Origin: a candidate division WOR-3 bacterium | GTDB lineage: Bacteria; Hydrothermota; UBA3072 | Length of the DNA: 64,000 nt | Assembly (NCBI GenBank): GCA_039804165.1 | Contig: JBDRZZ010000005.1 | Location: 27,290 to 91,289 of the forward strand | Reading direction: 5' to 3' | In this document: positions 1,358 through 62,577 of the stretch, one piece after another | Position numbering within the stretch: position 1 is the first letter of the stretch | Layout of the letters: each line of letters opens with the position of its first letter | Notes under the pieces: model-generated | The model's input: only the letters and a program-made list of their open reading frames with translations | Told to the model about the DNA's origin: nothing | Databases searched by the model: none | Made by a program: the position numbers and the translations under genes

Positions 1358-1492
1358 AGCAAATGATAATATATGGGTATCTTTTCAGTTGTCAAGGGGT
1401 ATTTTTATAGAAAATTCTTATTATAGGGAAATTCTATTGAATGGGGAGTGGTTTATACTTTTATTGAAGCATTATGGTTTTCTGAAATAAAC

Positions 1493-18564: not shown

Positions 18565-18636
18565 GCGGGAATAGCTCAGCGGTAGAGCGTCACCTTGCCA
18601 AGGTGAAAGTCGCGGGTTCAAATCCCGTTTCCCGCT
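18565..18636 (+). tRNA. tRNA-Gly (anticodon GCC)
   Basis: Cloverleaf gcgggaa/ttcccgc acceptor stem, anticodon loop ccttGCCaagg and TPsiC arm gcgggttcaaatcccgt. No encoded CCA. Confidence 0.9.
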
Positions 18637-18644
18637 TTTTATTT

Positions 18645-18716
18645 GGCGGCATAGCCAAGTGGAAAGGCAACGGTCTGCAAAACCGTTACACCCCGGTTCG
18701 AATCCGGGTGCCGCCT
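18645..18716 (+). tRNA. tRNA-Cys (anticodon GCA)
   Basis: ggcggca/tgccgcc acceptor stem, anticodon loop gtctGCAaaac and TPsiC arm ccggttcgaatccgg. Confidence 0.9.
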
Positions 18717-22403: not shown

Positions 22404-23083
22404 TTCCTTTCAATTATTATATCATCAAATGGTTCTTTTTGAAAAACTTTTGCCTTACCCCTTTTTATTACTTCAAGAAGAGCAAAAAATAGTCCAATTT
22501 TTTCTTCCTTTTTGGTATCTTCTATAAGACTTGAGAAGAGAAATCTTTTAAACCTTTTTAGGGTATTTGTTATTTTCTCAATAAGATTATCTATATGAAA
22601 TAGAATCGTTGCAGGTGGATTAAATGAGGATTTCTTTTTTATCTCTTTTAAGAGGGAATTTAACTCCTCAATTGAAATAGGAATTTCTTTCTCTACATTT
22701 ACCAAAGGTCTTCCAAACATCGTATTTGCAATTTTTAATTTTTCCCCTAAATAAATTCCTGCTTCTTTGAATTTTTTGTATTTAGAAAGTTTCTCGATCA
22801 AGGATTCCTTTGTTTCGAAATCTTCTTCAGATTCTTCTCTTTTCTCTTCATAAGAGAGTTCTTTTGCTTTTATCGAGAGAAGAGTAGCAGCATATCTTAT
22901 AAAATCTCCAGCACCATCAAAGTCTATTTTTTGAAGATCTTTTACAAAGAGTAAGTATTCCCTTGTTATACGGGAAAGAGAAATATCTCGAATGGAGACT
23001 TCTTGCTTTTTTACAAGATAAAGTAATAAGTCAAGGGGACCTTCAAATTCTTCGCAAAAAACCTGATAACTTTCAGTGATCAT
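22400..23083 (-). CDS. scpA: Segregation and condensation protein A
   Basis: FEGPLDLLLYLVKKQEVSIRDISLSRITREYL is the canonical ScpA N-terminus. No scpB is adjacent. Confidence 0.8.
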   Translation of the reverse strand: MITESYQVFCEEFEGPLDLLLYLVKKQEVSIRDISLSRITREYLLFVKDLQKIDFDGAGDFIRYAATLLSIKAKELSYEEKREESEEDFETKESLIEKLSKYKKFKEAGIYLGEKLKIANTMFGRPLVNVEKEIPISIEELNSLLKEIKKKSSFNPPATILFHIDNLIEKITNTLKRFKRFLFSSLIEDTKKEEKIGLFFALLEVIKRGKAKVFQKEPFDDIIIERK

Positions 23084-30862: not shown

Positions 30863-31684
30863 TTAGTCCTTTACAAGATAACTTCCTAAAATTTTCATAT
30901 AAGTTACGACTTCTTTTAAAGTCTCTACAGCATGGCTACAATTTTCATTTTCAAGACTTCCCCTAAAATCTATATAGAAGAGATAATCGTATGGTTTTCC
31001 AAAGGTAGCTCTAGATTCTAATTTGGTCAGGTCTATATTTCTCAAGGCAAAAATGCTTAGGCAGCGAAACAAGATTCCGGGTTCGTTTTTTACTCCAAAT
31101 ACAAGCATTGTTCTTGCATTTTCTCCTGAGTAGACTTCTTTTTTCTTTGATATTATAAGAAATCTTGTAAAATTATGAGGATGATTTTCAATTCCACTTT
31201 TTAATTTTTTAAAGCCGTAAAGTTTTGCCACTTGAGGTCCTGCTATAATCGCTACATCTTTTCTCTTTTCCTCTTTTACAATTTTTGCTGCGCCTGCGGT
31301 ATCGTAAACTGAGACCACTTTATATTCAGGATGTGAAGAAAGAAATTCTCTGCATTGAGCCAAAGCTTCAGGATGAGACCAAACTTCTTTTATATTTTCT
31401 AACTTTATTCCTTTAGGAGCCAATAGATTATGGACTATTTTTTGCTTCACTTCCCCAATCACCCAAACATCAAACTCAAGAAGTAAATCATAGTTTTGGT
31501 GAAGACTCCCTGTAAGGGAATTTTCCACAGGAACAATTCCATATGTATCTTTTTCTTTTTGAACTCTTTCAAAAATTTCTCTGAATGTTTTAACCCCAAT
31601 TCTTTTCACCTCCTTAGGGAAGAATTTATAGGAGGCAACTTCGCTATTACAACCTGGTTCTCCTTGATATATTACCTTTTTCAT
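30863..31684 (-). CDS. pheA: Prephenate dehydratase (monofunctional, with a C-terminal ACT domain)
   Basis: [15 protein letters not shown]...[14 protein letters not shown]... PDT fold and an ACT domain. No chorismate mutase domain. Confidence 0.85.
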
Positions 31685-48375: not shown

Positions 48376-49470
48376 TTAACTTTTGGGGATAAAGAGGGTG
48401 AATTTAGAACCTTTATCCTTTTCGCTTTCTACTTCGATCCAACCACCCATTCCTCTTATTACGCTGTTGACAAAGAAAAGTCCTATTCCTGAGCCTCCTT
48501 CGTCTCCATTTTCTTCTGTTTTTGTTGTAAAGAAAAGTTCAAAGATTTTTTCTTTTACCGCAGGTTCCATACCGCATCCATTATCAGAAACTGATATAGC
48601 GACATATTCTTTTTCCTTTTCGTCTTTCTCAAGGCGGAAGATATTTCTGACTTCAAAGTGAATTTTACCCTCGTTTGATTCTCCAATTGCATCTTTTGCG
48701 TTCATTAGTAGGTTTATAAGCACTTGATGAAGTTGGTCTGGGTCTCCTATTACTAAGGGTTCTGGATCAAAATAAGAAGCTGTAATTGTTAATTTTTTGG
48801 ATAATGCTTGTTGACCTAAATGAACTACTTCTTTTACCACATCAATTACATTAAAGAGTTTCTTCTCTCCTCTAATTTTTCTTGTGTTAGAGAGAAGAGC
48901 TTTTAAGAGATTTTTTATTCTCCTTACCCCATCCGCACCTAATTGGACGTCCTCAAGGACTTCAGGGTCCTTTATGTATTCTAAGGCAGCATTAATTCCA
49001 TATGAAACTTCCATTAATAAATTGTTTGCTTCATGGGCTATTCCCCCAATAAGTTGTCCAATTGTTGCAAGCCTTCTTGAAGAAAGCATCCTTTTTTGGA
49101 GTATTTCTAATTTTGAGACATCTTTTGCCATTGATAAACCCCTAATTTGTGAACTCAAATTAAGGAAAATAGAACTCCATTCGTAAATTCTTTTACTTCC
49201 AAATTCAGGCTTTATTTCTATATTTTGGATGATTATAAAAGGCTCTTTTTCATCAAAGGCTTCTCCTTCAATATTTCCCTCTTTTTGAGCTTTAATTGAT
49301 TCCTGTAACTCACGCATAAGTGTTGGTTCTAAGATTTCCTTTATTGGTTTTCCAAATTCTTGTTCTGCCCTTCCATTCCAGAAAAGAATTTTGTAATCTT
49401 TGTCCCAAGCGATAAGAGGAACAGGAATAAAATCAAGTAAAAATCCCAATTCTTTTTCTATCTCTATCAT
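48376..49470 (-). CDS. Cytoplasmic PAS-domain sensor histidine kinase (orphan, no adjacent response regulator)
   Basis: PAS-like N-terminus, H-box LIGGIAHEANNLL, then N/G1/G2 boxes (DNGCGM, GSGIGL). No TM segments. Confidence 0.8.
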   Translation of the reverse strand: MIEIEKELGFLLDFIPVPLIAWDKDYKILFWNGRAEQEFGKPIKEILEPTLMRELQESIKAQKEGNIEGEAFDEKEPFIIIQNIEIKPEFGSKRIYEWSSIFLNLSSQIRGLSMAKDVSKLEILQKRMLSSRRLATIGQLIGGIAHEANNLLMEVSYGINAALEYIKDPEVLEDVQLGADGVRRIKNLLKALLSNTRKIRGEKKLFNVIDVVKEVVHLGQQALSKKLTITASYFDPEPLVIGDPDQLHQVLINLLMNAKDAIGESNEGKIHFEVRNIFRLEKDEKEKEYVAISVSDNGCGMEPAVKEKIFELFFTTKTEENGDEGGSGIGLFFVNSVIRGMGGWIEVESEKDKGSKFTLFIPKS

Positions 49471-49542: not shown

Positions 49543-49740
49543 TTATTCCTCCCAGTCTTTCACTTCAAGATGAGAAATCGCACGATGGGAGACGAAAACA
49601 GATCGGTTGTTCGCCATTGGGGTTTCCACTTTTAGAAATAAACCTCTATCATTTCTTCCAGTTACAGTCCCTTCAAACTTTGATCCATCTATCGTTATTA
49701 TCTTTACATGTCTTCTTAACCCCCTTTTCCAGTCCACCAT
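49543..49740 (-). CDS. Divergent Hfq-like / Sm-fold small protein (65 aa)
   Basis: VKIITIDGSKFEGTVTGRNDRGLFLKVE aligns with the Sm1 motif, and VFVSHRAISHLEV matches the Hfq Sm2 motif YKHAIS. RBS AAAGGAGGAG. Confidence 0.5.
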   Translation of the reverse strand: MVDWKRGLRRHVKIITIDGSKFEGTVTGRNDRGLFLKVETPMANNRSVFVSHRAISHLEVKDWEE

Positions 49741-49764: not shown

Positions 49765-49902
49765 TTAACAATAACCTACAGTTCCATCACCGCTTAAGAC
49801 AATCATTCCAATTTCTGGATTACTTAAATTTTCTAATTTTGTTCCCTTTTTCAAAGACCCAACAAAACTTAATAAGATTAATAATACATTTAAAGTAACC
49901 AT
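49765..49902 (-). CDS. Unannotated 45-aa peptide with a hydrophobic N-terminus (MVTLNVLLILLSFVGSLKKGTKLENLSNPEIGMIVLSGDGTVGYC)
   Basis: ATG preceded by AAAGGAGGT at 7-nt spacing and TAA stop. Lies between a sigma54 promoter and the Hfq-like gene. Too short for the ORF track. Confidence 0.45.
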   Translation of the reverse strand: MVTLNVLLILLSFVGSLKKGTKLENLSNPEIGMIVLSGDGTVGYC

Positions 49903-49938: not shown

Positions 49939-49955
49939 CGCAATACTCGTTCCAA
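49939..49955 (-). promoter_or_regulatory. Sigma54 (-24/-12) promoter
   Basis: Minus strand TTGGAACGAGTATTGCG matches TGGCAC-N5-TTGC with one mismatch and exact GG/GC spacing. An IHF-like site AATCAAATACTTA lies at 49974-49986. Confidence 0.5.
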
Positions 49956-50007
49956 AAAGATTAAGTTATTGAAAATCAAATACTTATATTGTTAAAAAGA
50001 GAAAATT

Positions 50008-50025
50008 TGTGACATTTATGTCATA
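50008..50025. promoter_or_regulatory. Palindromic upstream activator site 1 (TTGTGACA-N4-TGTCATAAAA)
   Basis: tgtgacatttatgtcata is near-dyad-symmetric (GTGACA/TGTCAT), about 55 bp upstream of the -24 element. Confidence 0.45.
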
Positions 50026-50072
50026 AAAAATTGCTTAATCTTTAGAAAGTATTGAAATTGCTGAATTTTTAT

Positions 50073-50090
50073 TGTGACAAAAATGTCATA
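50073..50090. promoter_or_regulatory. Palindromic upstream activator site 2 (second copy)
   Basis: tgtgacaaaaatgtcata, with the same flanks (ttGTGACA...TGTCATAAAA), 65 bp from copy 1 and immediately after the activator-gene stop. Confidence 0.45.
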
Positions 50091-50114
50091 AAAGGGACAG
50101 AAGAGGCGTAAAAT

Positions 50115-53100
50115 TTACTTTTTTATTTCAAATTCTTTAATTAGTCTATATAGATGTCTTTTTGAAATTTTTAAGTTTTCTGCGGTTTTTTTTATATCCC
50201 AATTTGTTTCTTCAAGAGCTAAAAGGATTGTTTCTCTTTCCCATTTTTTCTTTATCTCTGGCCATGAGACCTTTTTCTCTTCTATTTTTTCTCTTTTTAC
50301 TTCTTCTGGTAGGTCTTCTTCTTTTATATATTCTCCTTTACATTTAATTATAGAAATTTCTACAATATTTCTTAATTCTCTAATATTTCCGGGGAAGGGA
50401 TAATTTTTCAAAATCTCAATTGCTTCTTCTGTAAAGCCCTTTATCTTCTTTTCTCTTTTTTCTCTAAATATTTTTAAATAATGTTCAAGTAAAATGGGGA
50501 TATCAATTTTTCTTTCCCTTAGGGGAGGGATTGATATGTTTATTTGGTTTAAACGATAAAGGAGGTCTTCTCTAAATTCTCTTAAGAAAGCCATTTGTTC
50601 GATATCCTTATTTGTTGCAGAAATAATTCTAACATCGACCTTTCTTATTTCTGTTTCTCCCACCCTTCTAATTTCTCCAAGGTCTGTAACTCGCAAGAGT
50701 CCTGCTTGGATTGAAGGAGGAGCATCTCCAATCTCATCCAAGAAGAGAGTTCCTCCGTTTGCCTCTTCGCACATTCCCTTTTTGTCTTTTATTGCTCCGG
50801 TGAATGAACCCTTTTTGTGACCAAATAATTCACTCTGAAGCAAGGTTTCTGTTAGGGAACTACAATCCACAGTTACAAAGGGCCTATTTTTTCTTTTGCT
50901 TAAAGAGTGGATCGTTCTTGCAATAAGTTCTTTTCCAGTTCCTGTTTCTCCTGTGATTAAAACATTTACATCTGTTGGAGCAATTTCTTCTATTGTTTTA
51001 TATATCTTTTGCATTGGTTCTGAAATCCCAATTATTGAATGGAAAGAATGTGGAGGGGAAGTCATTTTTCTTAACCGAGCTAACTCCTCTTTTATTTGGT
51101 AAAGGAGATCTCCTTTTGCAAAAAGAATGCCGAGAATCCTTCCAATTGACTGTAAGAACTCTTTATCAGAAGGAAGGAAAATGTCTTTTTTTATTGTTGA
51201 ATCAAGATAAAGAACTCCATAAATTTTGTTTTTATAAGTTATTGGAACACATAAAATTGAACGGATTTTATTTCTCTGAATGGAATCCATTTTGTAAAAT
51301 CTTTCATCTATTGTTGCATCTCCTGTGATTATGACTTCTCCTTTTATAACTTTTTCAGTTATTGTTTTTGAGATCTTCCTTGCGTCCTGGAGAGTTATTT
51401 CATCTATGTTGTAAGAAGAAACAATAATATTTTTATCATTCTCTTTTAAAATTAGAGCTCCTCTTTCTGCATTTAGAAATTCTGTAATTGTGGATAAAGC
51501 TTCATCAAACCTTTTTTCCGAGTCAATTGAAGAAAGGAGTTTACTTATTTCGTCATAGGTGTAGATATATCCTTTTCTTAATGAAGTTTTTCTAGCGCAT
51601 TCTGCAAGAAGTTTGGTTGTTTCATTTAAGAAAAGTTCTGATTTTAGCTCCTTAAAAACTTCCTCTGCTTTTTTTAATTCTTCAATTGCTTCTTCTATTC
51701 TATTTTTTTGAAGTAAAATGGTTCCTTTTTTCAATTGTGTTTGAGCAATGTGGAAAGGTAGGCTAATCTTAGAGAAAAGCTTAATTGCTTTATCGCAAAA
51801 CCTTGGTTCCTCGTTTATAAAACCCCAAGAAGAAAGAAGCTTCCCTTTTTCAAAATTTGATTTTAAGGAAGAGATTTTCTCAAAATAAGGTTTTAGAGTT
51901 TCTACTGCCTCTTCTTTTTTTCCTTCTAAGAATAAAACTTCCGAAAGTTGTCGAGCAATATCTCTTTCATCTCTTGGGTCTCCTTTTGTTCTTTTTAAAA
52001 CCTCTCTAAAAATCTTCTCAGCTTCTTTTAGTTCTCCTTTCCATCTAAGAATTGTTCCTTCTAAGTCTCTTAAGTCATATTTTTCTTCTTTTAATTCATT
52101 TCTTAATCTTTCAACCTCAAGCCAATTTCCTTTATATAGCTCTCCTTCAAGTAATTTTGCCTTTAAGAAAGGTTGAAGCTTTCCATGCCTATTTTTAAAA
52201 TCTTCTATTTTCTCTTTTAATTTTTCCCAAAAACCAGTATTAAGATAAAGAATAGATAAACTTGTTAGACAAGGAGATTCAAGTTCTCCAATTTTTAATT
52301 TTTTGAAAATTGAAAGGGCCTCTTCAAGTTGTTTTAAAGCTTCCTTATAGTTATCAAGGCGTAAAAGGGAAATTCCTTTATATGTTATAAATATTGCTTC
52401 ATTTACAAAATCTCGTTCTTTTTTAGATATCTCAAGACATTTCTCAAAATATTCAATTGCCTCTTCATGTTCTTCTTTCTGTTGATTCGCAATCCCTCCA
52501 AGGGTTAAGAAATGTCTTTTTAAGGTAGGGGAGAGGTCTTTTTTTAGTTCCTCTTCAACAATTTTTAATGTTTTCTCAAAATCTCCTTTTGCGCAGAGAA
52601 ACCTTCCTTCAACAAATTTTAATTTTGGTGGTAATTCTTTTGCTTCATTTTTGTATTCCAAAATGAGTTTTTCTGCCTCTTCTATTCTTTCCTGTCTTAC
52701 AAGAAAATAACCTAACCAATAAATCCCTTCTTCTTTTAATTTTCCCTTTGCAAATTTAATTCCTTCTCTAAAATATTTTTCAGCTTCTTCTTTATTCTCA
52801 AGCCTATCAAAAATAGCTCCAATTTTTAATAAATAAAAAGGATTCTCTTTTTTCTTTTCTAAAAGTTCTTTGTAAATGGATAGGGCTTCATTTATCTTTC
52901 CTCCTAATTCAAAAACTCTTCCAAGAACCATCCGAAGAATTGGCTCATCTTTTAAAAGAAGAGCTTCTTGTAAAAATTTTCCAGCTTCCTGATAATCTTT
53001 CTCTTTTATTTTCTTTTTTGCTATTTTTATTAAAGATTCTCTATATTCTTTTTCTTTACCTAAGTCTTTTTCAAGAAGATGTAAAGACTCAGGAGTGGAG

Positions 53101-54740
53101 ATTCTTTTTTTTATTCTTTTATAAAGTTCTTCCTTTTCTTTTTGGGTCAGTTTTTTATAGAAGAAATCTCTTGTCCAATTAGAAAGAAATTGAATTCCTT
53201 TCTTATCTTTTTTTAATATGTTCTTTGAGGAAAGAGAATTAACCAAAGTGTAAGGATTTTTTATTTCAAAAATTGAAATTGAATTTAAAGGGAAGCTTTC
53301 CTGGAAAATGGATAGTTTTTTTAATAGTTCCTTTTCTTCTAAGGGAAGCTTTTCGAGTTTTGCTTTTAAATTTTCTTCAATACCTTTTGGTAAGGAAATA
53401 GATAAGGGAAGTTTCTCATTAAAGAAAATTTCATCTCCTTTTCTTTCAATTGCTCCTTCTAAAATGAGATTCTCGATTAGCTGATTTAAAATAAGAGGAT
53501 TCCCTTCGCTTTGTTTAAGGAGAAAAGAAGTTAGCTCTTTTTTATTTATAATCTTATTAGGAAAATTTTTGTTAATAATGAATTCAATTTCTTCTTTGTT
53601 TAAGGGAGAAAGGGTAAAAGAAGTTGTAATATCTTCTAATTCTTCTAATTCGTTTTCTTTATCAGGGCTGCTTATCACAATTAAAATAGGGCTTAACCTT
53701 ATTGTTGTTTTATTTTCTTTTAAGATAACTTTTATTTCCTGAAGAGAAGCATTATCAATAAATATAACAATGGGTTCTGTTATTCTTTCTTCTTTAAAGA
53801 AAAGATGGATTTCTCCGGAACTCATTTCTTTTATGTTTATTCCCTTTATAAGAGCTCTTATTTTGAATTCCCTTAAAAGAGCTGTTTTGCCAATTCCTTT
53901 TTCTCCTTTTATTAATAAAATGTGAGGCTCAGGCAGGTTGGAAAGATAAAACTCGAAATCCTTTATTTCTTTTTCTCTTCCAGAAAAAATTGTAATAAAT
54001 GAGAGCTTTCTTTCTTCTATTGTGGTTCCAAGAAGAATTTCTCTTTTTACATCTTCTATATTCTTAATCCTATTTTCAATTTGGGGTTCAATCATCCTCT
54101 GAATTAGAAAGTTTAATTCCTCTGGAATTAAAGGATTATATCTTTCTGGTGGGGGAAGACGGTTTTTTAGTTTTTCCTCTATTATTTTTGACAGGTTTCC
54201 TTTAAATGCTTTTTCTCCTGTTAAAATCTCGTAAAGAATTATGCCAATAGAGTAAATGTCAGAAGAAAAAGAAGGGACTTCTGTAAAGGCTTCTGGAGAT
54301 GTATATGTAGGAGTAATTATTTCCGGATTATATCCTGGATCGATCAACTTGACGTTATTTCTTTCATCCACAAATATGTGATTTGGTTTAAGATCGCCAC
54401 AGACAATTCCACGAGAATGTAGAACTGAAAGAGCATCAAGAATGGAGTTAAGAATATTTTTGATTTTGTCGAAATCTTCTTTTTGAGACGGTTTTACTTT
54501 GAAGACTTTGTCGATTGTTGGAGAAGAGATTTTTTCCATTGAAAAGCCACATTTTTCACCATCTTCAAACCACTCGTAAACAGTTACAAAATGAGGGTCT
54601 CTAATTTCAGAGAGAAGTTTAAATTGTTCGTAAAGTAAATCCTTCTTTAGAAGTTCTCCAACTTTGTATACAATTTCTCCTTTTTCGTAAATCTTTGCAA
54701 AATTTCCTTTTTTAATAAGATTAAATTTAGTTAAATCCAT
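50115..54740 (-). CDS. Giant multidomain sigma54-dependent transcriptional activator: Ser/Thr-kinase-like domain, AAA_16/STAND-type P-loop NTPase, TPR array, GAF, sigma54-interaction AAA+ domain and Fis-type HTH
   Basis: Kinase-like motifs (CGDLKPNH, DPG, SPE, DIYSIG). Walker A GEKGIGKT. About 500 aa of TPR-like repeats. GAF (ILCVPITYKNKIYGVLYLD). EBP core (VLITGETGTGKE, GSFTGA, LFLDEIGD). C-terminal HTH (ISKRHLYRLIKEF). No receiver domain. Confidence 0.85.
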   Translation of the reverse strand: MDLTKFNLIKKGNFAKIYEKGEIVYKVGELLKKDLLYEQFKLLSEIRDPHFVTVYEWFEDGEKCGFSMEKISSPTIDKVFKVKPSQKEDFDKIKNILNSILDALSVLHSRGIVCGDLKPNHIFVDERNNVKLIDPGYNPEIITPTYTSPEAFTEVPSFSSDIYSIGIILYEILTGEKAFKGNLSKIIEEKLKNRLPPPERYNPLIPEELNFLIQRMIEPQIENRIKNIEDVKREILLGTTIEERKLSFITIFSGREKEIKDFEFYLSNLPEPHILLIKGEKGIGKTALLREFKIRALIKGINIKEMSSGEIHLFFKEERITEPIVIFIDNASLQEIKVILKENKTTIRLSPILIVISSPDKENELEELEDITTSFTLSPLNKEEIEFIINKNFPNKIINKKELTSFLLKQSEGNPLILNQLIENLILEGAIERKGDEIFFNEKLPLSISLPKGIEENLKAKLEKLPLEEKELLKKLSIFQESFPLNSISIFEIKNPYTLVNSLSSKNILKKDKKGIQFLSNWTRDFFYKKLTQKEKEELYKRIKKRISTPESLHLLEKDLGKEKEYRESLIKIAKKKIKEKDYQEAGKFLQEALLLKDEPILRMVLGRVFELGGKINEALSIYKELLEKKKENPFYLLKIGAIFDRLENKEEAEKYFREGIKFAKGKLKEEGIYWLGYFLVRQERIEEAEKLILEYKNEAKELPPKLKFVEGRFLCAKGDFEKTLKIVEEELKKDLSPTLKRHFLTLGGIANQQKEEHEEAIEYFEKCLEISKKERDFVNEAIFITYKGISLLRLDNYKEALKQLEEALSIFKKLKIGELESPCLTSLSILYLNTGFWEKLKEKIEDFKNRHGKLQPFLKAKLLEGELYKGNWLEVERLRNELKEEKYDLRDLEGTILRWKGELKEAEKIFREVLKRTKGDPRDERDIARQLSEVLFLEGKKEEAVETLKPYFEKISSLKSNFEKGKLLSSWGFINEEPRFCDKAIKLFSKISLPFHIAQTQLKKGTILLQKNRIEEAIEELKKAEEVFKELKSELFLNETTKLLAECARKTSLRKGYIYTYDEISKLLSSIDSEKRFDEALSTITEFLNAERGALILKENDKNIIVSSYNIDEITLQDARKISKTITEKVIKGEVIITGDATIDERFYKMDSIQRNKIRSILCVPITYKNKIYGVLYLDSTIKKDIFLPSDKEFLQSIGRILGILFAKGDLLYQIKEELARLRKMTSPPHSFHSIIGISEPMQKIYKTIEEIAPTDVNVLITGETGTGKELIARTIHSLSKRKNRPFVTVDCSSLTETLLQSELFGHKKGSFTGAIKDKKGMCEEANGGTLFLDEIGDAPPSIQAGLLRVTDLGEIRRVGETEIRKVDVRIISATNKDIEQMAFLREFREDLLYRLNQINISIPPLRERKIDIPILLEHYLKIFREKREKKIKGFTEEAIEILKNYPFPGNIRELRNIVEISIIKCKGEYIKEEDLPEEVKREKIEEKKVSWPEIKKKWERETILLALEETNWDIKKTAENLKISKRHLYRLIKEFEIKK

Positions 54741-54846: not shown

Positions 54847-55527
54847 ATGGGTAAAATAATTGTGGTTGTAGATGATGAGGTTGATATTGTAGAGCTTATT
54901 TCTGTTAACCTGGGAAAAGTAGGCTTTAAAGTTGAAGGTTTTTATAATGCAGGTGACTTTTTAAATTTTCTTAAAAAGAGAACCCCTGACCTTATTATTC
55001 TTGATTTAATGTTGCCTGACGCGGATGGTTTTGAGGTTTGTAAATATTTAAAATCTGAGGAGAAATATGGAAATATTCCAATTATAATGGTAACAGCAAA
55101 AGGTGAAGAGGTGGATAAGATTTTAGGTCTTGAGATTGGAGCTGATGATTATATCACAAAGCCTTTTTCTACAAGGGAATTAATTGCAAGGGTTAAGGCG
55201 GTTTTAAGAAGGTTTGAGAAAGAGGATAAATTTGAGGTTATTAAGATAGGGGGAAACGTGGAAATTCTTCCTAATAAGTATAAGGTTATTGTTTCTGGCA
55301 AAGAAATTGAGCTTACTTCAACCGAGTTTAAAATTTTGGTTTTGCTTGCTAAGAGGAAAGGGTGGGTTTTTTCCCGAGACCAGATTCTAAATTATCTATA
55401 TGAAGGGGAGAGACTCGTATTTGACAGAACTATTGATGTTCACATAGCACATCTTAGGGAAAAACTTGGCAAATATGGAGGTTTTATTAAAAGTGTGAGG
55501 GGTATAGGATATAAAATAGAAGAATGA
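54847..55527 (+). CDS. phoB: OmpR/PhoB-family response regulator
   Basis: REC domain (VVVDDE...DLIILDLMLPDADG...ITKPF) plus a winged-helix output domain. Followed by phoR and pst genes. Confidence 0.85.
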   Translation: MGKIIVVVDDEVDIVELISVNLGKVGFKVEGFYNAGDFLNFLKKRTPDLIILDLMLPDADGFEVCKYLKSEEKYGNIPIIMVTAKGEEVDKILGLEIGADDYITKPFSTRELIARVKAVLRRFEKEDKFEVIKIGGNVEILPNKYKVIVSGKEIELTSTEFKILVLLAKRKGWVFSRDQILNYLYEGERLVFDRTIDVHIAHLREKLGKYGGFIKSVRGIGYKIEE

Positions 55528-57260
55528 AGAATATATTTTTTAGAATCTTTTTTGGGCAGTTAATTTTGATTAGTTGTGTTTCTTTATTTTTTGTTTTGTT
55601 TTCTTTTGGTTTAGTAAAAAGGTATTATGTTAATACTCTTACCGAAAACCTTGAAAAAATTGCTCTTTCTCTTAGAAGGACCTTAACTCCTTATCTTGTT
55701 TGTGAAAAATTCTCTTCTTTAGATTCTCTTGCAAAGTATATTGGAAAAGAGATAAAGGTGAGAATTACTGTAGTTGACTTAAAAGGGGTTGTTCTTGCTG
55801 ATTCCGAAGAGAATCCTGAGAAAATGGAAAACCACGGAACAAGGCCAGAAATATTACAAGCTTTTTATGGAAAAACCGGGATTTCTCTTCGTTTTAGCAA
55901 AACTTTTGGTAAAGATATGTTATATGTTGCTATTCCTATTAAAGATGAAAAAGGTGAGGTGTTTGGAGTTATAAGGTTGAGTTTATTTTTCACTCAGATA
56001 GATGAGCTAATAGGTGCTTTTGTTAGAAATTTACTTATTGTTGTTTTTTCGCTTTTATTTTTTTCTATTTTTGTATCTTTTTTTTATTCTAAATCTCTTG
56101 CAAAACCCATTGGTGAGCTTGTAAGTATAGCCGATGAAGTAGCTAAAGGTAATTTTGAACTTGAGGTTTTTGTAGAAGGTAAGGGAGAATTAAAGAGGCT
56201 TGCCGAAAGCTTTAATAGTATGCTCACTCGTATTAGAGAATTGGTTTCTAAATTATCAGAACAAAGAGATTCTCTTGATATTGTTATTTCTTCTATTGGA
56301 GAAGCTCTTCTTGTGATTAACTCGGATGAAAAGATAGTGATTGTTAATGATAGTTTTAAAGAGATTTTTAATGTAAGTGAAGTAAAAAATAAATATTATT
56401 GGGAGGTTTTTAGAGAACCTCAGTTTGGAGAAATTATAGAAGAAGTAAAAAAGAAAAGAGATAGCGTAGTAAAGGAAATAAAAATTGGAGAGAGATATTT
56501 TATATGCACTGCTAACTTTTTAAAAAAATATAATGAAGTTGTAATTACTCTTCACGAAATAACCGAGAAAAAGAAAACCGAATTAATGAAAAAAGATTTT
56601 ATTTCAAATGTCTCTCATGAACTCCGGACACCTTTAACTGCTATTAAGGGTTTTGTTGAAACTCTTTTAGAAACTCAAAAGGGTGATGGTAAGAGATATC
56701 TTGAAATAATAAGAAAGCAAACAGATCGTCTCATTAATATTGTTAAAGATTTACTTAGACTTTCTGAACTTGAAGAAATTGAAGAAGGGAAGATTAAAAT
56801 TGATTTTTCACAGGTGGATTTAAAGAAATTGATAAAGGATGTTTTAAGTATTTACGAAAAAGAAATGAAAGATAAGGGCTTGCGCTTGGTTGTTTCTATA
56901 GATAGAAGCGTTTCTAAGATTAAAGGTGATCCATTTAAACTCGAGCAGCTTTTTATGAATTTAATTGAGAATGCTATTAGGTATACAGATAAAGGAGAAA
57001 TAAAAATAAATGCAAGAAGAGAAAAGAGAGCGATTGTTATTGAAGTTTCTGATACAGGAATTGGAATATCCGAGGAACATTTACCAAGAATTTTTGAAAG
57101 ATTCTACGTTGTGGATAAGTCTCGTTCCCGTGAATATGGAGGGACAGGTCTTGGGCTATCCATTGTGAAGCATATTGTCCAATTACATCAAGGAGAGATA
57201 AGGGTTGAGAGTAAAAAAAATAAAGGAACAAAATTTACCATTATTTTGCCGGAGAATTAG
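55524..57260 (+). CDS. phoR: Phosphate-regulon sensor histidine kinase (PhoR-like: TM, HAMP, PAS, HisKA, HATPase)
   Basis: H-box SHELRTPLTAIKGF and ATPase boxes (DTGIGI, GGTGLGLSIVK). Overlaps phoB with ATGA. Confidence 0.8.
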   Translation: MKNIFFRIFFGQLILISCVSLFFVLFSFGLVKRYYVNTLTENLEKIALSLRRTLTPYLVCEKFSSLDSLAKYIGKEIKVRITVVDLKGVVLADSEENPEKMENHGTRPEILQAFYGKTGISLRFSKTFGKDMLYVAIPIKDEKGEVFGVIRLSLFFTQIDELIGAFVRNLLIVVFSLLFFSIFVSFFYSKSLAKPIGELVSIADEVAKGNFELEVFVEGKGELKRLAESFNSMLTRIRELVSKLSEQRDSLDIVISSIGEALLVINSDEKIVIVNDSFKEIFNVSEVKNKYYWEVFREPQFGEIIEEVKKKRDSVVKEIKIGERYFICTANFLKKYNEVVITLHEITEKKKTELMKKDFISNVSHELRTPLTAIKGFVETLLETQKGDGKRYLEIIRKQTDRLINIVKDLLRLSELEEIEEGKIKIDFSQVDLKKLIKDVLSIYEKEMKDKGLRLVVSIDRSVSKIKGDPFKLEQLFMNLIENAIRYTDKGEIKINARREKRAIVIEVSDTGIGISEEHLPRIFERFYVVDKSRSREYGGTGLGLSIVKHIVQLHQGEIRVESKKNKGTKFTIILPEN

Positions 57261-57310
57261 GTTTGTAAGTTTTGTTTTTATAGGGTCGATTAATAAGTCA
57301 ATTTTTAATC

Positions 57311-57349
57311 TTAACAAATACTTAATACTGAATTAATAAGAAATTAACC
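57311..57349 (+). promoter_or_regulatory. Pho-box-like array upstream of the porin gene: four 6-bp direct repeats at 11-bp periodicity
   Basis: TTAACA-aatac-TTAATA-ctgaa-TTAATA-agaaa-TTAACC. This matches the Bacillus-type PhoP box TT(A/T/C)ACA with 5-nt spacers. Confidence 0.5.
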
Positions 57350-57441
57350 ACTCTATTTATGGTAGATTGTGAAGACTAAGTTGTATGTTTGACTTCATTA
57401 AATGGTGTATTATAAACCTTTAACTCAAAAAGGAGGTTTTT

Positions 57442-58446
57442 ATGAAGAAGTTTAGTTTAGTAGTCGGTTGGAGTTGCCTGATTTTATTGATTGTTGCTCC
57501 TATAGGTCTAAAGGGAGGAGAAACGAAAATCTCTATGACGTTGTGGAATAGATATACTGCTGAAAGAAGCGAAGGGAAATTTACCAAAAGTGCATTTACC
57601 TTAGAGAGAGGTTATTTTGGTGTTGAACCCACTTTTACAGATAGGATAAAAGGTAGATTCACAATTGATGTTTTCTCTTCTGATAAATTTGCAGATGGAG
57701 CTGGACTTAAGTTGAAATACGCTTATCTTAATTTTACGCAAGTTTTGCCAATACCAGAGAGCGATATCCAGGTTGGGTTACTAAAGCATTATTTTGGAAC
57801 TGTCTATGACTGGGAGTATATTTCTATTCGGAAAGCCCTGGAGGACGAGAGAAAAGTAGCTTCATCCGCAGATTATGGACTTGCTCTTTTTGGTTATATT
57901 CCGCATGGTTTTGGAGAATATGCAATTTCAATTTTAAATGGAGAAGGATATAATAAGACAGGGAGTGCCCTTGACAAAGAACCTGAAATTGCAGGTAACT
58001 TGAGAGTTATTCCTTTACCAGGATTAACTATTGGAGGCTCTATTCTTTATGAAAATAAGGAAAGTGATCGATTTGCCTATGTAGGTGTAGGACGTATTGC
58101 AAGAGGTCCATTTGAAATCTGGGGAGAGTATCTTATTCAAGATAAAAGCGATATTAAGAGTAATGGTTGGATGATTATGCCAATCTTAAAGCTTCAGAAT
58201 TTAGCAAAATTGGATGTGGACATTATTGGAAGATTTGATAAATGGGACGGCAATACCGAATTAGAAAATGATGGAGATATGACTATTACCTGTGGGATAA
58301 ACTGGAATCTCGTTAGAGACGAAAAGAATAAATCTTGTGTTTTCCTTCAAATTCAGGGAGAGAAGACTATTTTCGAAAATGAAGCTATAAGTGATATTAA
58401 TCAGCTTTTGATTCAACTCCAATGGAAATTCAGCAATACCATATAA
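57442..58446 (+). CDS. Outer-membrane beta-barrel porin, possibly phosphate-selective
   Basis: Signal peptide, alternating amphipathic beta-strands and a C-terminal aromatic residue region (LQWKFSNTI). Pho-box upstream and pstS downstream. Confidence 0.45.
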   Translation: MKKFSLVVGWSCLILLIVAPIGLKGGETKISMTLWNRYTAERSEGKFTKSAFTLERGYFGVEPTFTDRIKGRFTIDVFSSDKFADGAGLKLKYAYLNFTQVLPIPESDIQVGLLKHYFGTVYDWEYISIRKALEDERKVASSADYGLALFGYIPHGFGEYAISILNGEGYNKTGSALDKEPEIAGNLRVIPLPGLTIGGSILYENKESDRFAYVGVGRIARGPFEIWGEYLIQDKSDIKSNGWMIMPILKLQNLAKLDVDIIGRFDKWDGNTELENDGDMTITCGINWNLVRDEKNKSCVFLQIQGEKTIFENEAISDINQLLIQLQWKFSNTI

Positions 58447-58453
58447 AAGACTC

Positions 58454-58492
58454 TTAACAAAAACTTAACATTTAATTAATGGTTTTTTAATG
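58454..58492 (+). promoter_or_regulatory. Second Pho-box-like array upstream of pstS
   Basis: TTAACA-aaaac-TTAACA-tttaa-TTAATG-gtttt-TTAATG with exact 11-bp periodicity, about 30 nt upstream of the pstS RBS. Confidence 0.5.
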
Positions 58493-58522
58493 ATTGGATA
58501 GAATAATAAAAGGAGGTTTAAA

Positions 58523-59341
58523 ATGAAAAAGAGTGGAATTTTTAATCTTGTAAAAGTGTGGATGGTTCTTTTAGGTTTCTCCGGTTTTGCTGCTTCAAAG
58601 AGGATAAATATCACGGGTTCCACCACTGTTTTACCAATTGCCCAAAGAGAGGCAGAAGCTTTTATGGATCTTTATCCAGATATTTCAGTCTCTGTCCGAG
58701 GCGGTGGTTCTGGAGTAGGAATTACAGCACTTATTGATGGAAGAACAGATATAGCAAATTCTTCAAGGGCTATTCAAACGAAAGAACTTAAAATTGCTCG
58801 AGAGAAAGGTGTAAATGTTTATGCGAATGTGATAGCTCGGGATGGAATTGCAATTGTTGTTAACCCTAAAAACCCTATAGATTCTATTACATTGGAAGAT
58901 TTAAAGAAGATTTATACTGGAGAGATTAGTAATTGGGAAGCTCTTGGAGGACCATCTAAACCTATAGTTGTTATTTCTCGGGATTTCTCTTCAGGAACTT
59001 TTGAAGTTTTTAAAGACCTTGTTCTTAAAGGAGGAAAGGTAAAAGATGATGCTTTGATGCTTGCTTCAAATAAAGCCGTTGCTACAACTGTAGCAGAAAC
59101 TCCAGATGCGATTGGTTATATTGGTCTTGGGTATATTTCTGAGGAAGTAAAAGTTTTGAAGATTGATGGAGTTTTTCCTAATAAAGAAACAGTTCAAAGT
59201 GGGAAATATAAACTATCGCGTGCTCTTTTTATGTATACGAATGGTGAACCTAAAGGCATCATAAAAACTTTTATAAATTTTGTATTATCCAGAGAGGGGC
59301 AGAGAATTGTTGAAGAAGAAGGATTTGTGCCAGTTAAATGA
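58523..59341 (+). CDS. pstS: Phosphate ABC transporter substrate-binding protein
   Basis: Signal peptide, then TVLPIAQREAEAFMDLYPDISVSVRGGGSGVGITALIDGRTDIANSSRAI. Confidence 0.9.
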   Translation: MKKSGIFNLVKVWMVLLGFSGFAASKRINITGSTTVLPIAQREAEAFMDLYPDISVSVRGGGSGVGITALIDGRTDIANSSRAIQTKELKIAREKGVNVYANVIARDGIAIVVNPKNPIDSITLEDLKKIYTGEISNWEALGGPSKPIVVISRDFSSGTFEVFKDLVLKGGKVKDDALMLASNKAVATTVAETPDAIGYIGLGYISEEVKVLKIDGVFPNKETVQSGKYKLSRALFMYTNGEPKGIIKTFINFVLSREGQRIVEEEGFVPVK

Positions 59342-59394
59342 AGTCAAATACCTCCTTATTTATGGGTTTGTTGTTGACACAGCTGAAAAAAACC

Positions 59395-59422
59395 AAGAGG
59401 TGGGGGGTAGGCCCCACCTCTT
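59395..59422 (+). other. GC-rich 11-bp perfect stem-loop between pstS and pstC. Likely an mRNA-stabilising or partial-terminator hairpin
   Basis: aagaggtgggg-ggtagg-ccccacctctt. It stands out in an AT-rich genome. pstC downstream lacks an obvious SD. Confidence 0.5.
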
Positions 59423-59433
59423 AAATAATAAAA

Positions 59434-60300
59434 ATGTTGAAAGAAAAGATTTTTAAATATTTGACTGAGGCAGCAGCTTTATGTTCTATTATTTTTCTTT
59501 TTGGAATAATATTCAGTGTATTTAAGGAAGGATATGTTATATTTTCTGAAGTGGGTTTTCTTAAATTTATTTTTGGTAAATCCTGGCACCCCGTTTATTC
59601 TCCTCCAGAATTTGGAATCTTGGGACTTATTGTTGGTTCGGTGATTGTCACTTTTGGAGCCTTGATTATTTCCGTTCCACTTGGTTTGGGCTCCGCCATT
59701 TATATTTCAGAGCTTTCTTATCCAAAAGCTAAGGAAGTTTTAAAACCAATTATAGAGCTTCTTGCAGGTATTCCTTCAGTAATTTACGGTTTATTTGGTA
59801 TGGCTTTTTTGGGACCTTTCCTTGCAAGGATTTTTGGTTTGGAAGTGGGTTTAAATGCTTTTACCGCTTCAATAATTCTTGGGATAATGGTGATTCCCAT
59901 AATTTCAAGTATTTCGGAGGATGCGATAAATGCGGTTCCAAAGGATTTAAGGGAAGCATCTTTTGCTCTTGGAGCAAATAAATGGGAGACAATAATTCAT
60001 ATAATACTTCCCGCAGCAAAGTCAGGAATCATTGCTTCAATAGTTCTTGGGTTTGGAAGAGCAATTGGAGAAACAATGGTTGTTTTGATGGTAGCAGGGG
60101 GATCAGCAAAGATACCCCATTCAATATTTCAACCAGTTCGTCCTATGACTTCTACGATCGCGGCGGAAATGGGAGAAGCAACCGTTGGTAGTTTACACTT
60201 CCATGCTTTATTTGGAATAGCGATTGTCCTTTTTTTAATAACGTTTTTTTCTAACCTTTTAACTGAATGGGTGATTAGAAAGGCAAAGGGTAAAAAATGA
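59434..60300 (+). CDS. pstC: Phosphate ABC transporter permease PstC
   Basis: Six-TM permease with an EAA-like loop (ISEDAINAVPKDLREASFALGANKWETI). Confidence 0.9.
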   Translation: MLKEKIFKYLTEAAALCSIIFLFGIIFSVFKEGYVIFSEVGFLKFIFGKSWHPVYSPPEFGILGLIVGSVIVTFGALIISVPLGLGSAIYISELSYPKAKEVLKPIIELLAGIPSVIYGLFGMAFLGPFLARIFGLEVGLNAFTASIILGIMVIPIISSISEDAINAVPKDLREASFALGANKWETIIHIILPAAKSGIIASIVLGFGRAIGETMVVLMVAGGSAKIPHSIFQPVRPMTSTIAAEMGEATVGSLHFHALFGIAIVLFLITFFSNLLTEWVIRKAKGKK

Positions 60301-61151
60301 AGATTAGAAAACTGAAAGAATTTTTAGGAATAAATGCTTTAAGAATAGCAATACTTATAAGCATATTGTTTTTATTTTTGTTTATTGGTATTGTTTTTTC
60401 TAAAGGAGTTAAAATGATTTCCTTTTCTTTTCTTCTTGAGCCACCACGGGATGGAATGACAAAAGGTGGAATATTTCCGGCTATAATTGGGACTTTATAT
60501 TTGACAGTTCTTGCTGTTTTATTTGCTTTTCCTTTAGGGGTTCTATCAGCCATTTATCTTGTTGAGTATTCAAAAGAAAATTTTCTTGTTACTATTATAA
60601 GAACAGCTATAGGAACCTTGGCAGGTATTCCCTCTATAATTTTTGGACTATTTGGTCTTGCAATCTTTGTAATAACTTTTGGATTTGGAGTTTCTATTCT
60701 TTCTGGTTCTCTAACTTTAGGAATAATGATTTTGCCAATGGTTATTAAAGCTTCGGAAGAAGCTTTAAAGGCAGTTCCTCATAGTTTTAGGGAAGCTGCT
60801 TATGCTCTTGGAGCGACTAAAAGACAAACTATTCTTAAAGTTATTGTTCCCACAGCACTACCAAGTATAATGACAGGTGTGATTATTAGCATTGGGAGAG
60901 CCGCAGGTGAAACAGCTCCTATTCTTTTTACTGCAGCAACTTTCTATACTAGAAGATTACCCAGATCCGTTTTTGATGAGGTTATGGCTCTCCCATATCA
61001 TATTTACGCCTTAATGACAGAAGGGACAAGGCCAGAATCTCAAGTTCCTATTGCTTATGGAACTTCAGTTATTCTTTTAACACTTGTTTTAGCGATTAGT
61101 TCTCTTTCTATTATTATTAGATACAGAATTAGGAGGCAAAGGAAATGGTGA
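60297..61151 (+). CDS. pstA: Phosphate ABC transporter permease PstA
   Basis: Permease with an EAA loop ([28 protein letters not shown]). Confidence 0.9.
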
Positions 61152-61900
61152 AGAATAGACTAAAAGTTGAGAGATTAAATCTTTGGTTTGGAGAGAAGCA
61201 AATCCTAAAAGATATTTCTTTTTCTATACCTGATAAAAAGGTAACAGCGATTATCGGTCCCTCAGGTTGTGGAAAAACAACTCTTTTAAGATGTTTTAAT
61301 AGGATGAACGATCTTGTAGAAAACGTAAAGATTAAAGGCAAGATTTTCTTGGATGGTTACAATATATATGAAGAAACAGATTTATCATCTTTAAGAATGA
61401 AAGTAGGGATGGTTTTTCAAAAGCCAAATCCTTTTCCTAAGTCAATTTTTGAGAATGTTGCTTTTGGGCTTCATATTAAAGGAATAAGAGATAAAAATAG
61501 AATAATGGAGATTGTAGAGAATAGTTTAAAAAGAGCTTGGCTTTGGGAAGAAGTTAAGGACCGCTTAAGCTCTTCCGCAATGGAACTTTCGGGTGGACAA
61601 CAACAGAGACTCTGCATTGCAAGAGCTCTTGCAACGGATCCAGAGGTTATTCTATTTGATGAACCAACCTCTGCTCTTGATCCAAAAGCTACAGCAAAAA
61701 TAGAAGAGTTAATTGTAGAACTTAAAAATTCTGTGACTGTTATCCAAGTAACCCATAACATAGGTCAAGCCGCGAGAATTTCTGATTTTACTGCTTTTCT
61801 TTATCTTGGTGAGTTAGTTGAGTTTGGCCCTACAGAAAAATTATTTACAGTTCCTCAAGATAAAAGAACGGAAGAATATCTTGAGGGTAAATTTGGATAA
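61145..61900 (+). CDS. pstB: Phosphate ABC transporter ATP-binding protein
   Basis: Walker [10 protein letters not shown], signature LSGGQQQRL and Walker [12 protein letters not shown]. Confidence 0.9.
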
Positions 61901-61911
61901 GAGGTGTTAAA

Positions 61912-62577
61912 ATGTTGGAAGAAAGAATAAAATCTTTAAAAAAAGAGATAATAAATTATGCTTCTTTGGTTGAGGTAATGATTGAAAAAAGTATTCAAGG
62001 CTTAGTAAAGAGACAAAAAGAACTGCTTAAGGAAGTTATTGAGAAAGACGAGGAAAAAGCAAATGAGATGGAGATGAAGATTGAAGAGCACTGTATTGAA
62101 ACCTTGGCTCAGTTTGAACCGAGGGCTAAGGACCTAAGGTTAATTGTTGCAGCTTTAAAGATGAACAACGATTTGGAGAGAATGGCTGATCATGCTGTAA
62201 ATATAGCTGGTAACGCTTCTTTTTTGATTGAACTTCCAAGAGAGGCTTTTATAGAAGAAATTCTAACTATGGCAGAAAAGACTAAGAAAATGTTAAAGGA
62301 TAGTGTGGACTCTTTTATTGAGGGAGATACCCAAAAAGCTGAGGATGTTTGTAAAAGAGATGATGAGGTGGATGAACTTCAGGATAAGATAATCAAAGCC
62401 CTTGTTTCGAATATGTGCGTTGAGCCAGATTCGCTTGCCTCGATAGACCAGAGAGTGCATCTTCTTATAATAGCTAAAAATTTGGAGAGAATAGCGGATC
62501 TTTCCACTAACATATGTGAAGATACGATTTATTTAGAGAAAGGAAAGGACATAAAACACCACAGAGGATTTAAATAA
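61912..62577 (+). CDS. phoU: Phosphate-transport system regulatory protein PhoU
   Basis: Two PhoU repeats with conserved D/E-x-x-x-D motifs (NNDLERMADHAVNIA / AKNLERIADLSTNI). Confidence 0.85.
   Translation: MLEERIKSLKKEIINYASLVEVMIEKSIQGLVKRQKELLKEVIEKDEEKANEMEMKIEEHCIETLAQFEPRAKDLRLIVAALKMNNDLERMADHAVNIAGNASFLIELPREAFIEEILTMAEKTKKMLKDSVDSFIEGDTQKAEDVCKRDDEVDELQDKIIKALVSNMCVEPDSLASIDQRVHLLIIAKNLERIADLSTNICEDTIYLEKGKDIKHHRGFK

Follow-up and report, generated by a model that had tools for sequence, protein, structure and literature searches.

An atypical non-RD kinase-like domain at the N-terminus of a STAND-GAF-sigma-54 activator from a candidate division WOR-3 bacterium

We analysed a gene in a 64,000-nucleotide stretch of DNA from a candidate division WOR-3 bacterium (assembly GCA_039804165.1, contig JBDRZZ010000005.1, positions 27,290 to 91,289 of the forward strand; this whole stretch is the window below) that encodes a 1541-residue transcriptional activator, in which a kinase-like domain is followed by a STAND-type NTPase, TPR repeats, a GAF domain and a sigma-54 AAA+ domain with a C-terminal HTH. 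As judged by profile alignment and predicted structure, the N-terminal 245 residues form a true kinase domain of the Hanks type, non-RD in its catalytic loop. The core of its active site (Lys26, Asp116, Lys118, Asp134, Thr143 and the APE-Glu150/Arg224 pair) is, by the residue counts in relatives, frozen by selection, and the shell around ATP and Mg2+ that sets their positions is, by the same alignments, rewired and fixed in the family (Gly1 to Lys10, Glu to Gln39, Asn to His121, Phe to Pro135, and a short activation linker). With moderate confidence, we read this domain as a nucleotide-binding, conformationally rigid regulatory module of the activator, with little or atypical phosphotransfer.

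RESULTS

A Hanks-type kinase fold at the start of the activator

The original prediction had placed a kinase-like domain with degenerate motifs at 50115..50870. The sole long open reading frame (ORF) across that stretch is 50115..54740, and all of the motif strings that had been quoted are present in its 1541-aa product. The position was wrong, because the ORF lies on the minus strand with its N-terminus at 54740, and the kinase-like domain occupies 54006..54740. The translation of 50115..50870 is the C-terminal 251 aa of the protein, the second half of the AAA+ module, with the GSFTGA loop, Walker B, lid and HTH. An identical deposited protein (P0001), from a metagenome-assembled genome (MAG), is named 'sigma 54-interacting transcriptional regulator [candidate division WOR-3 bacterium]'. 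The coordinates of the gene, its domains and the downstream features are collected in Table 1.

Both properties that define the Hanks superfamily, the fold and a profile score above the curated threshold, were found in this domain. The Pfam Pkinase model (PF00069) matches the single sequence at E 1.5e-23, its score of 84 bits exceeding the threshold of 31.7, and AlphaFold2, run on a 17-sequence alignment, models the domain with a predicted local distance difference test score (pLDDT) of 90.1 and a predicted template modelling score (pTM) of 0.87. The model has a five-stranded N-lobe (beta1-beta3, alphaC, beta4-beta5) and the usual C-lobe, and the solved structures that Foldseek ranks best are M. 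tuberculosis PknB, S. aureus PknB/Stk1, PknA and PknE (E ~1e-16, TM-scores 0.75-0.80). Thus, the structure-prediction check that the original prediction had named came out in favour of a kinase fold.

The single-sequence Pfam and PDB alignments begin only at about aa 35-45 and leave the N-lobe unaligned, as might be expected if the motifs had been misassigned or the region were no kinase at all. The family profile resolved the register: it aligns with the active S. pneumoniae kinase StkP over aa 3-245, including the glycine-rich loop (G-loop) and beta3, with an E value of 5e-40, and this alignment fixes the register of every motif. The alignments to PKA and Stk1 agree, the N-lobe and alphaC are modelled at a pLDDT of ~90, and the match to PknB by Foldseek has an E value of 1e-16. 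We therefore reject misassignment or a fold other than that of a kinase, which we consider vanishingly improbable.

In this register, K10, G12, F14 and A15 occupy the positions of Gly1, Gly2, Phe and Gly3 of the G-loop, K26 that of the beta3 Lys, and Q39 that of the alphaC Glu. C114-G115-D116 corresponds to HRD, K118 and H121 to the catalytic-loop Lys and Asn, D134-P135-G136 to DFG, T143-P-x-Y-x-S-P-E150 to the P+1 loop and APE, and D161 and R224 to the subdomain IX Asp and the subdomain XI Arg, respectively. The sequence IVYKV (aa 23-27), suspected earlier as the VAIK equivalent, holds Lys26, which aligns with the lysine of StkP VAVK. All three residues of the catalytic triad (beta3 Lys, HRD Asp and DFG Asp) are present as K26, D116 and D134, based on alignment to StkP and PKA.

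The active site is conserved above the rest of the domain

A word-indexed search yielded 24 full-length orthologues at 42-69% identity, a scan through all of 1.84 billion representatives gave only ~8 representatives of the family, each ~1500 aa or a fragment, and among 185,579 species genomes there were only four close loci, all in uncultured MAGs and two of them within one MAG. The residue counts given here cover 27-30 family domains, depending on position. One MAG carries two paralogues of the activator, L005 and L006 (CAZGHN010000001.1 and CAZGHN010000003.1), both with the full Gln/His/DPG signature; that at L006 is interrupted by the contig end, and the complete one is L002/L005.

Thirteen of the aligned positions discussed here are invariant in 30 domains: G12, K26, Q39, D116, K118, H121, D134, P135, T143, P149, E150, D161 and R224. 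The adenine-pocket and catalytic-spine residues I17 and F123 and the hinge residue E69 are also invariant. Among 27 members, 9 of the 10 ATP-binding and catalytic positions chosen a priori are invariant, compared to 37 of all 245 positions (hypergeometric P = 1.5e-7). Identity between pairs of sequences averages 0.65 for the kinase-like domain, lower than for the sigma-54 AAA+ (0.79) and GAF (0.74) domains and higher than for the HTH (0.55), STAND (0.53) and TPR (0.51) parts. Judged by this pattern, the domain is not a decaying relic, and its active site, odd residues included, is under purifying selection.

This conservation bears directly on an alternative that we regard as unlikely, namely that the domain is a dead scaffold pseudokinase that needs no nucleotide, its fold kept only as a surface through which the STAND/AAA+ assembly interacts or dimerises. 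A scaffold gives no reason for Lys26, Asp116, Lys118, Asp134, Gly12 and the adenine pocket to stay invariant down to ~38% identity, or for active-site positions to stand so far above the rest of the domain. It would fit the four changes in the ATP/Mg shell and the truncation of the activation loop (see below), and also the frequency of true pseudokinases among kinase-AAA_16-GAF relatives; the published CP1 family, which has this architecture, consists of ~40% pseudokinases, by loss of VAIK-Lys, HRD-Asp or DFG-Asp (PMC12599244).

Substitutions in the ATP- and metal-positioning shell

The motifs depart from the canonical set in part where the original prediction had said, in part elsewhere. The G-loop had been described as reduced: Gly1 is indeed replaced by Lys10, but G12 and Phe14 are kept, and the change of Gly3 to Ala is shared with the active StkP. 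The non-RD call is borne out by a Gly directly before the catalytic Asp (Gly115) in 29 of 30 family domains. Also confirmed are the reading of DFG as DPG, the retention of both catalytic Asp residues (Asp116 and Asp134, invariant across the family) and the presence of DIYSIG in subdomain IX. In contrast, SPE at aa 148-150 is no degenerate APE; this form is usual in bacterial Hanks kinases, is found in StkP, and has Ser at its first position in 188 of the ~430 other kinase domains sampled.

Three deviations had gone unflagged, the change of the alphaC Glu (PKA Glu91) to Gln39, that of the catalytic-loop Asn (PKA Asn171) to His121, and a deletion of ~11 residues in the activation loop. Position 39 is Gln in 29 of 29 family domains and Glu in 226 other domains. 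Because position 120, Asn here, is T, S, N or Q among relatives, Asn120 is not a relocated catalytic-loop Asn. The activation loop is ~11-12 residues shorter than that of StkP, based on the gap in the alignment, and has no phospho-acceptor. In addition, Cys114 and Pro135 stand in for two of the four residues of the regulatory spine, and Lys10 and His121 bring side chains close to the phosphates, at places usually taken by the backbone of a glycine and by a ligand of Mg. The combination of Pro135 and a Pro-rich activation linker of six residues argues for a fixed geometry of the DFG and activation segment. Four further family-invariant residues, W57, E59, C64 and G65, lie in beta4-beta5 of the N-lobe (aa 57-65, 54546-54572 on the minus strand) and have no canonical role; they could form an interaction surface.

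The domain has lost none of the three residues whose loss (VAIK-Lys, HRD-Asp or DFG-Asp) defines a pseudokinase in the bSTK atlas (bioRxiv 10.1101/2025.01.12.632604) and PMC12599244, all three being invariant. Because the K/D/D triad is complete, the domain is labelled an atypical kinase and is formally no pseudokinase. Of the choice between a non-RD atypical kinase and a scaffold pseudokinase that had been posed earlier, the first half is thus upheld by the CGD motif and the second is weakened by the intact triad and the invariance of the active site. On the wider list of six critical residues (PMC4718504), the domain keeps the equivalents of Gly52, Lys72, Asp166 and Asp184 and replaces Glu91 and Asn171. 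Nucleotide binding is probably retained, by analogy with kinase-fold proteins that bind ATP with similar changes (see Discussion), and its dependence on metal is probably altered or reduced. Any phosphotransfer would probably be slow, with the activator or a close partner as its substrate.

These same residues can also be read as those of a competent non-RD Ser/Thr kinase in which the substitutions are tolerated or shift the metal preference, for example to Mn2+ through a His/Asp site. On this account, which we hold as a tentative possibility, multimerisation of the STAND module would bring kinase domains together and lead to phosphorylation of the activator or a partner. The invariant triad, Lys118, Thr143 and the substrate-binding segment TPxYxxPE are what such a kinase would have, and a non-RD catalytic loop together with the loss of the activation-loop phospho-acceptor makes a coherent constitutive design. 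CASK is active without its Mg ligands (PMC4718504), and STAND kinases such as PknK are known (PMC4381067). However, two of the six critical residues, the catalytic-loop Asn and the alphaC Glu (PMC4718504), are replaced in all members, and Pro at the DFG Phe and Cys at the HRD His remove two of the four regulatory-spine residues. Moreover, the window has no second kinase domain, and no substrate, phosphatase or FHA partner was seen there, although no systematic search for these was made.

Relatives with the same architecture form a graded series

Distant proteins share the full architecture of Pkinase, AAA_16, MalT-like TPR, GAF, Sigma54_activat and HTH_8, and their kinase domains differ in how far they depart from the canonical set. 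Two of these, P0186 and P0026, are canonical, with GxGxxG, VAxK, the alphaC Glu, HGDIKPxN and DFG, and score 172-178 bits with the Pkinase model. P0091 is intermediate (115 bits), with FGDLTPSH and DIG and with the Glu retained, and the proteins of the WOR-3 clade score 75-95 bits. From this series we infer that the HGD non-RD state is ancestral and that the ATP/metal shell was remodelled in place. The canonical state of the deeper relatives P0026 and P0186 also counts towards the competent kinase described above.

The NTPase, sensor and output modules

The STAND module has both parts that define the class, a NOD with Walker A and B motifs and a C-terminal sensor of the repeat type. AlphaFold2 models aa 246-600 (pLDDT 88) with a beta-alpha-beta core followed by helical and beta-hairpin/helix elements. 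The top PDB fold match is 6MFV, a STAND-TPR protein, followed by RuvB, CED-4, Apaf-1 and Avs3, at TM-scores of only 0.34-0.43, which reflect a likeness of modules and not of overall arrangement. The second acidic residue of Walker B is Asp or Asn among the orthologues (ILLLDD or ILLLDN, and VIFIDN here), an alternation that may point to some members hydrolysing slowly or not at all.

The output half has the C-terminal HTH that, with a -24/-12 promoter and upstream enhancer sites, marks a sigma-54 activator; here, the palindromes described below are the candidate enhancers. In 26 of 27 family members, its sigma-54 contact loop reads GSFTGA, not GAFTGA. In one survey, GAFTGA is regarded as an invariant feature of enhancer-binding proteins and used as a filter, so that this family would be missed. 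Based on their sequence motifs, two NTPase switches (STAND and sigma-54 AAA+) are present in the activator regardless of the role of the kinase-like domain. The question of whether the system signals by phosphorylation or by conformational/NTPase switching, which the original prediction had made depend on the kind of kinase-like domain, was therefore put too sharply: an intact STAND P-loop and a sigma-54 AAA+ domain are there in either case.

Table 1. Positions of the activator gene, its domains and motifs, and the downstream control region and genes
Feature	Residues	Position	Strand	Remarks
Whole gene		50115..54740	-	1541-aa kinase-like/STAND NTPase/TPR/GAF/sigma-54 AAA+/HTH activator; ORF list, Pfam, NCBIfam
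Kinase-like domain	1-245	54006..54740	-	Pkinase match, AlphaFold2 model, Foldseek
Pfam Pkinase	36-226			E 1.5e-23
Glycine-rich loop KKGNFAKIY	10-18	54687..54713	-	aligned to StkP GRGGMADVY
Lys26, beta3 (VAIK) lysine	26	54663..54665	-	28/28 in family; within predicted strand aa 23-29
Gln39 at alphaC glutamate (PKA Glu91)	39	54624..54626	-	profile alignment r-g-q against StkP Q-R-E
Catalytic loop CGDLKPNH	114-121	54378..54401	-	HRD reads C-G-D; Asn position is His121
DPG for DFG	134-136	54333..54341	-	Asp134, Pro135 invariant
Activation segment and P+1 loop YNPEIITPTYTSPE	137-150	54291..54332	-	short, proline-rich
Subdomain IX DIYSIG	161-166	54243..54260	-	translation, StkP profile alignment
STAND-type NTPase	250-560	53061..53993	-	AAA_16 and nSTAND3 matches, AlphaFold2, PDB fold search
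Pfam AAA_16/nSTAND3	252-331
STAND Walker A GEKGIGKT		53883..53906	-	conserved in family
STAND Walker B VIFID-N	~325-330	53760-53780	-	conserved as hhhhD(D/N)
TPR repeat region, candidate sensor	~561-1060	51561..53060	-	TPR_12, TPR_2, other TPR matches
Pfam TPRs (TPR_12, TPR_2, others)	~578-961
GAF domain	1065-1205	51126..51548	-	Pfam GAF; NifA/NorR/FhlA-like alignments
Pfam GAF	1075-1205			E 7e-14
Sigma-54 AAA+, lid, HTH	1230-1541	50118..51053	-	Sigma54_activat, AAA_lid_14; HTH_8 (PF02954) listed for P0001
Pfam Sigma54_activat	1236-1402			E 6e-67
Pfam AAA_lid_14	1408-1489
Sigma-54 Walker A GETGTGKE		50928..50951	-
GSFTGA loop		50793..50810	-
Sigma-54 Walker B (LFLDEIG)		50727..50747	-
Candidate enhancer (upstream activating sequence) palindrome 1 ATGACAtttttGTCACA		50073..50089	-	conserved in four genomes
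Candidate enhancer (upstream activating sequence) palindrome 2 ATGACAtaaaTGTCACA		50008..50024	-	conserved in four genomes
Sigma-54 type -24/-12 element TGGAACGAGTATTGC		49940..49954	-	TGGAAC-N5-ATTGC
45-aa ORF		49765..49902	-	hydrophobic N-terminus MVTLNVLLILLSF..., variable Gly/Pro-rich tail, invariant C-terminal Cys
65-aa ORF		49543..49740	-	...GRNDRGLFLKVETPMANNRSVFVSH...; second gene behind promoter; highly conserved in L001, L003
Soluble PAS-HisKA-HATPase histidine kinase		48376..49470	-	AtoS/NtrB-like H-box; syntenic with cassette in three genomes
Matching control region, locus L001		11085-11310
Matching control region, locus L003		11950-12175
Matching control region, locus L004		12000-12290

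A conserved sigma-54 promoter follows the activator gene

The 644-bp spacer 3' of the activator gene holds, on the same strand, two palindromes, a -24/-12 element, a strong ribosome-binding site, ORFs of 45 and 65 aa, and a hairpin, and is followed by a gene for a PAS-histidine kinase. The activator itself has no receiver domain. Both palindromes are 55-135 bp upstream of the -24/-12 element. The palindromes, the -24/-12 element, the ribosome-binding site and both ORFs are kept beside the orthologues in L001, L003 and L004, the element as CTGGAAc/tgATTATTGc/t, and the remaining spacer has diverged. The palindromes have the form TGACA-N4-TGTCA, and a possible third, degenerate copy lies at 50094-50112 in the control region (49940-50112, minus strand).

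The 45-aa ORF, which has orthologues of 47-48 aa in L001 and L003, is on this arrangement the probable first target gene behind the promoter. Searches against families gave no match for it, and gave only a sub-threshold match to DUF6982 for the 65-aa ORF. The idea that the 45-aa peptide signals to the TPR sensor is entirely speculative. We also considered a lanthipeptide-type kinase acting on this small Cys-ending peptide and rejected this possibility, as there is no lyase or cyclase domain; a neighbouring radical-SAM gene was discarded as support for it, as its product resembles glycyl-radical activases.

The promoter was found only by a relaxed search for TGG-N8-TTGC; strict searches of the window with the sigma-54 consensus (TGGCAC-N5-TTGC and one degenerate form) gave no match. 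The relaxed pattern occurs 16 times in the whole window, compared to 5.5 expected from shuffles, and those of the other 15 matches that were checked fall within long ORFs. Two identical copies (TGGACTATTTTTTGC) were noted among the matches, e.g. at 22482-22496 (minus strand) and 31431-31445 (plus strand).

A model for the activator and the points against it

The arrangement of the modules suggests a sequence of events in which the TPR and/or GAF parts would sense a signal, the STAND NTPase would open and multimerise, and the sigma-54 AAA+ domains would then assemble at the two palindromes just downstream of the gene. The TGGAAC-N5-ATTGC promoter would fire in consequence and drive expression of the 45-aa and 65-aa ORFs, with the gene for the PAS histidine kinase perhaps among its targets too. 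The kinase-like domain, held in one rigid conformation, would act here as a regulatory or effector module of the STAND switch, with nucleotide bound perhaps without need of metal.

Several observations weigh against a rigid, nucleotide-binding module that acts in this way. First, it is by adjacency and conservation only that the downstream promoter is taken as the probable direct target of the activator, and the paralogue locus L002 (L002/L005) has no small-ORF cassette downstream. Second, other proteins that combine kinase, AAA_16 and GAF with sigma54 or HisKA have lost catalytic residues (P0027 with HKN/DVT, P0028 with CGA/DFS, P0029 with GFG, P0034 with HGG/DFI), and because they have done so, this type of protein can apparently work with a dead kinase domain. 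Third, the invariant Asp116, Lys118 and Thr143 are residues of phosphotransfer and not of ATP binding, and they fit a fully active kinase at least equally well; because of them an active kinase stays a serious rival.

A more elaborate form of the last point, which we think quite improbable, combines an active kinase with the downstream genes. The domain would use a His121/Asp134-based site (Mn2+ or cation-independent), be switched on by multimerisation of the STAND module and gate the GAF-AAA+ output through phosphotransfer, and would thereby form a self-contained circuit from Ser/Thr phosphorylation to sigma-54 that controls the peptide with the C-terminal Cys and the 65-aa protein, possibly as an autoregulatory loop sensed by the TPRs.

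Other genes in the window

A complete Pho regulon block (54847-62577, plus strand) is divergent from the activator and encodes a PhoB-like regulator, a PhoR/PnpS-like kinase, an unassigned 334-aa protein, PstS, PstC, PstA, PstB and PhoU. A link between the activator and this regulon (phoB, phoR, pstSCAB, phoU) was rejected, as the orthologous loci have other upstream neighbours; by this comparison the block is probably unrelated. Rfam matched nothing in the window but two adjacent tRNA genes (18565-18716, plus strand).

DISCUSSION

A catalogue of bacterial kinase-like domains fused to STAND ATPases and sigma-54 activators has existed only since 2025, and no such fusion has yet been the subject of experiments. 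The proteins compared here provide a natural test case, in that one architecture of ~1500 residues occurs with a canonical non-RD domain (P0026, P0186), an intermediate (P0091) and the fixed Gln/His/Pro variant. A comparison of these three forms could reveal what an enhancer-binding protein gains from a kinase fold and whether His substitutes for the metal-binding Asn, and the adjacent, conserved sigma-54 promoter with its two palindromes is a ready experimental read-out. There is also a lesson for annotation: inspection of motifs alone does not suffice to label a domain a kinase or a pseudokinase.

Literature searches for a fusion of kinase and sigma-54 domains by their Pfam names found none, and a survey of sigma-54 regulons does not mention activators with kinase domains. 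The kind is already catalogued, its match in architecture being the CP1 family of bacterial Ser/Thr kinases and pseudokinases (bSTK atlas, bioRxiv 10.1101/2025.01.12.632604; PMC12599244). CP1 proteins have cytosolic kinase or pseudokinase domains that are always linked to a COG3899 ATPase, frequently with FhlA-type (GAF and sigma-54 activator) or PAS modules, and their catalytic motifs are degraded to a variable extent; no member is characterised (PMC12599244). Similarly, the activator studied here carries AAA_16/nSTAND3, GAF, Sigma54_activat and HTH on one polypeptide with a kinase-like domain. It differs in range, as CP1 is described mainly in cyanobacteria and proteobacteria and the present clade consists of WOR-3 or unclassified MAGs only, and in its active site, where the triad is kept and the changes affect the equivalents of Glu91, Asn171, the DFG Phe and Gly50, together with the activation-loop deletion. 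Based on architecture and the published description, the activator is a lineage-specific variant of CP1-like kinase-STAND-FhlA fusions.

A parallel to the unusual catalytic loop is found in the eukaryotic pseudokinase STRADalpha, where a His at the position of Asn171, as His121 here, touches the phosphates of ATP in place of a cation and bound ATP stabilises a conformation that resembles the active one and signals allosterically; HER3 and JAK2 JH2 likewise bind ATP without the Lys-Glu bridge (PMC4718504). STRADalpha, however, has GLR instead of DFG, without the Asp, and no catalytic machinery, whereas Asp116, Lys118 and Asp134 are kept here, and the two are related only at the level of the kinase superfamily and have different partners. 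A second parallel is offered by the non-RD kinases, such as EFR and other receptor kinases of plant and animal innate immunity (PMC8463890), in which the Arg before the catalytic Asp is also replaced (by Gly here). The non-RD state is consistent with regulation that does without an activation-loop phosphate to neutralise the RD arginine. The immune kinases differ in that they keep Asn171, Glu91, DFG and a full-length activation loop, and EFR requires phosphorylation of that loop (PMC8463890).

The remaining modules are likened to the STAND regulators and to the classical enhancer-binding proteins. M. tuberculosis PknK is a canonical active kinase and is not known to carry a sigma-54 module. 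In STAND proteins, of which PknK is one, binding of an inducer leads to opening of the NOD and to multimerisation, and effector domains may lie at either end (PMC4381067). The activator shares with PknK and MalT-type proteins an N-terminal kinase or effector, a NOD (P-loop NBD-HD-WHD) and a TPR/SUPR sensor (PMC4381067), and the Pfam model for MalT-like TPRs matches its relatives P0091, P0186 and P0026. MalT differs in its output, which is a LuxR-type DNA-binding domain that works with sigma-70, in contrast to the GAF-AAA+-HTH enhancer-binding module found here. This module resembles NifA, FhlA and NorR in its combination of GAF, Sigma54_activat and HTH_8, with alignments over the C-terminal 400-490 residues, and in the palindromic enhancer upstream of a -24/-12 promoter. 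All NCBIfam scores are far under the equivalog cut-offs, however, and NifA, FhlA and NorR lack the kinase-STAND-TPR extension of 1060 residues that sets the N-terminus of this activator apart.

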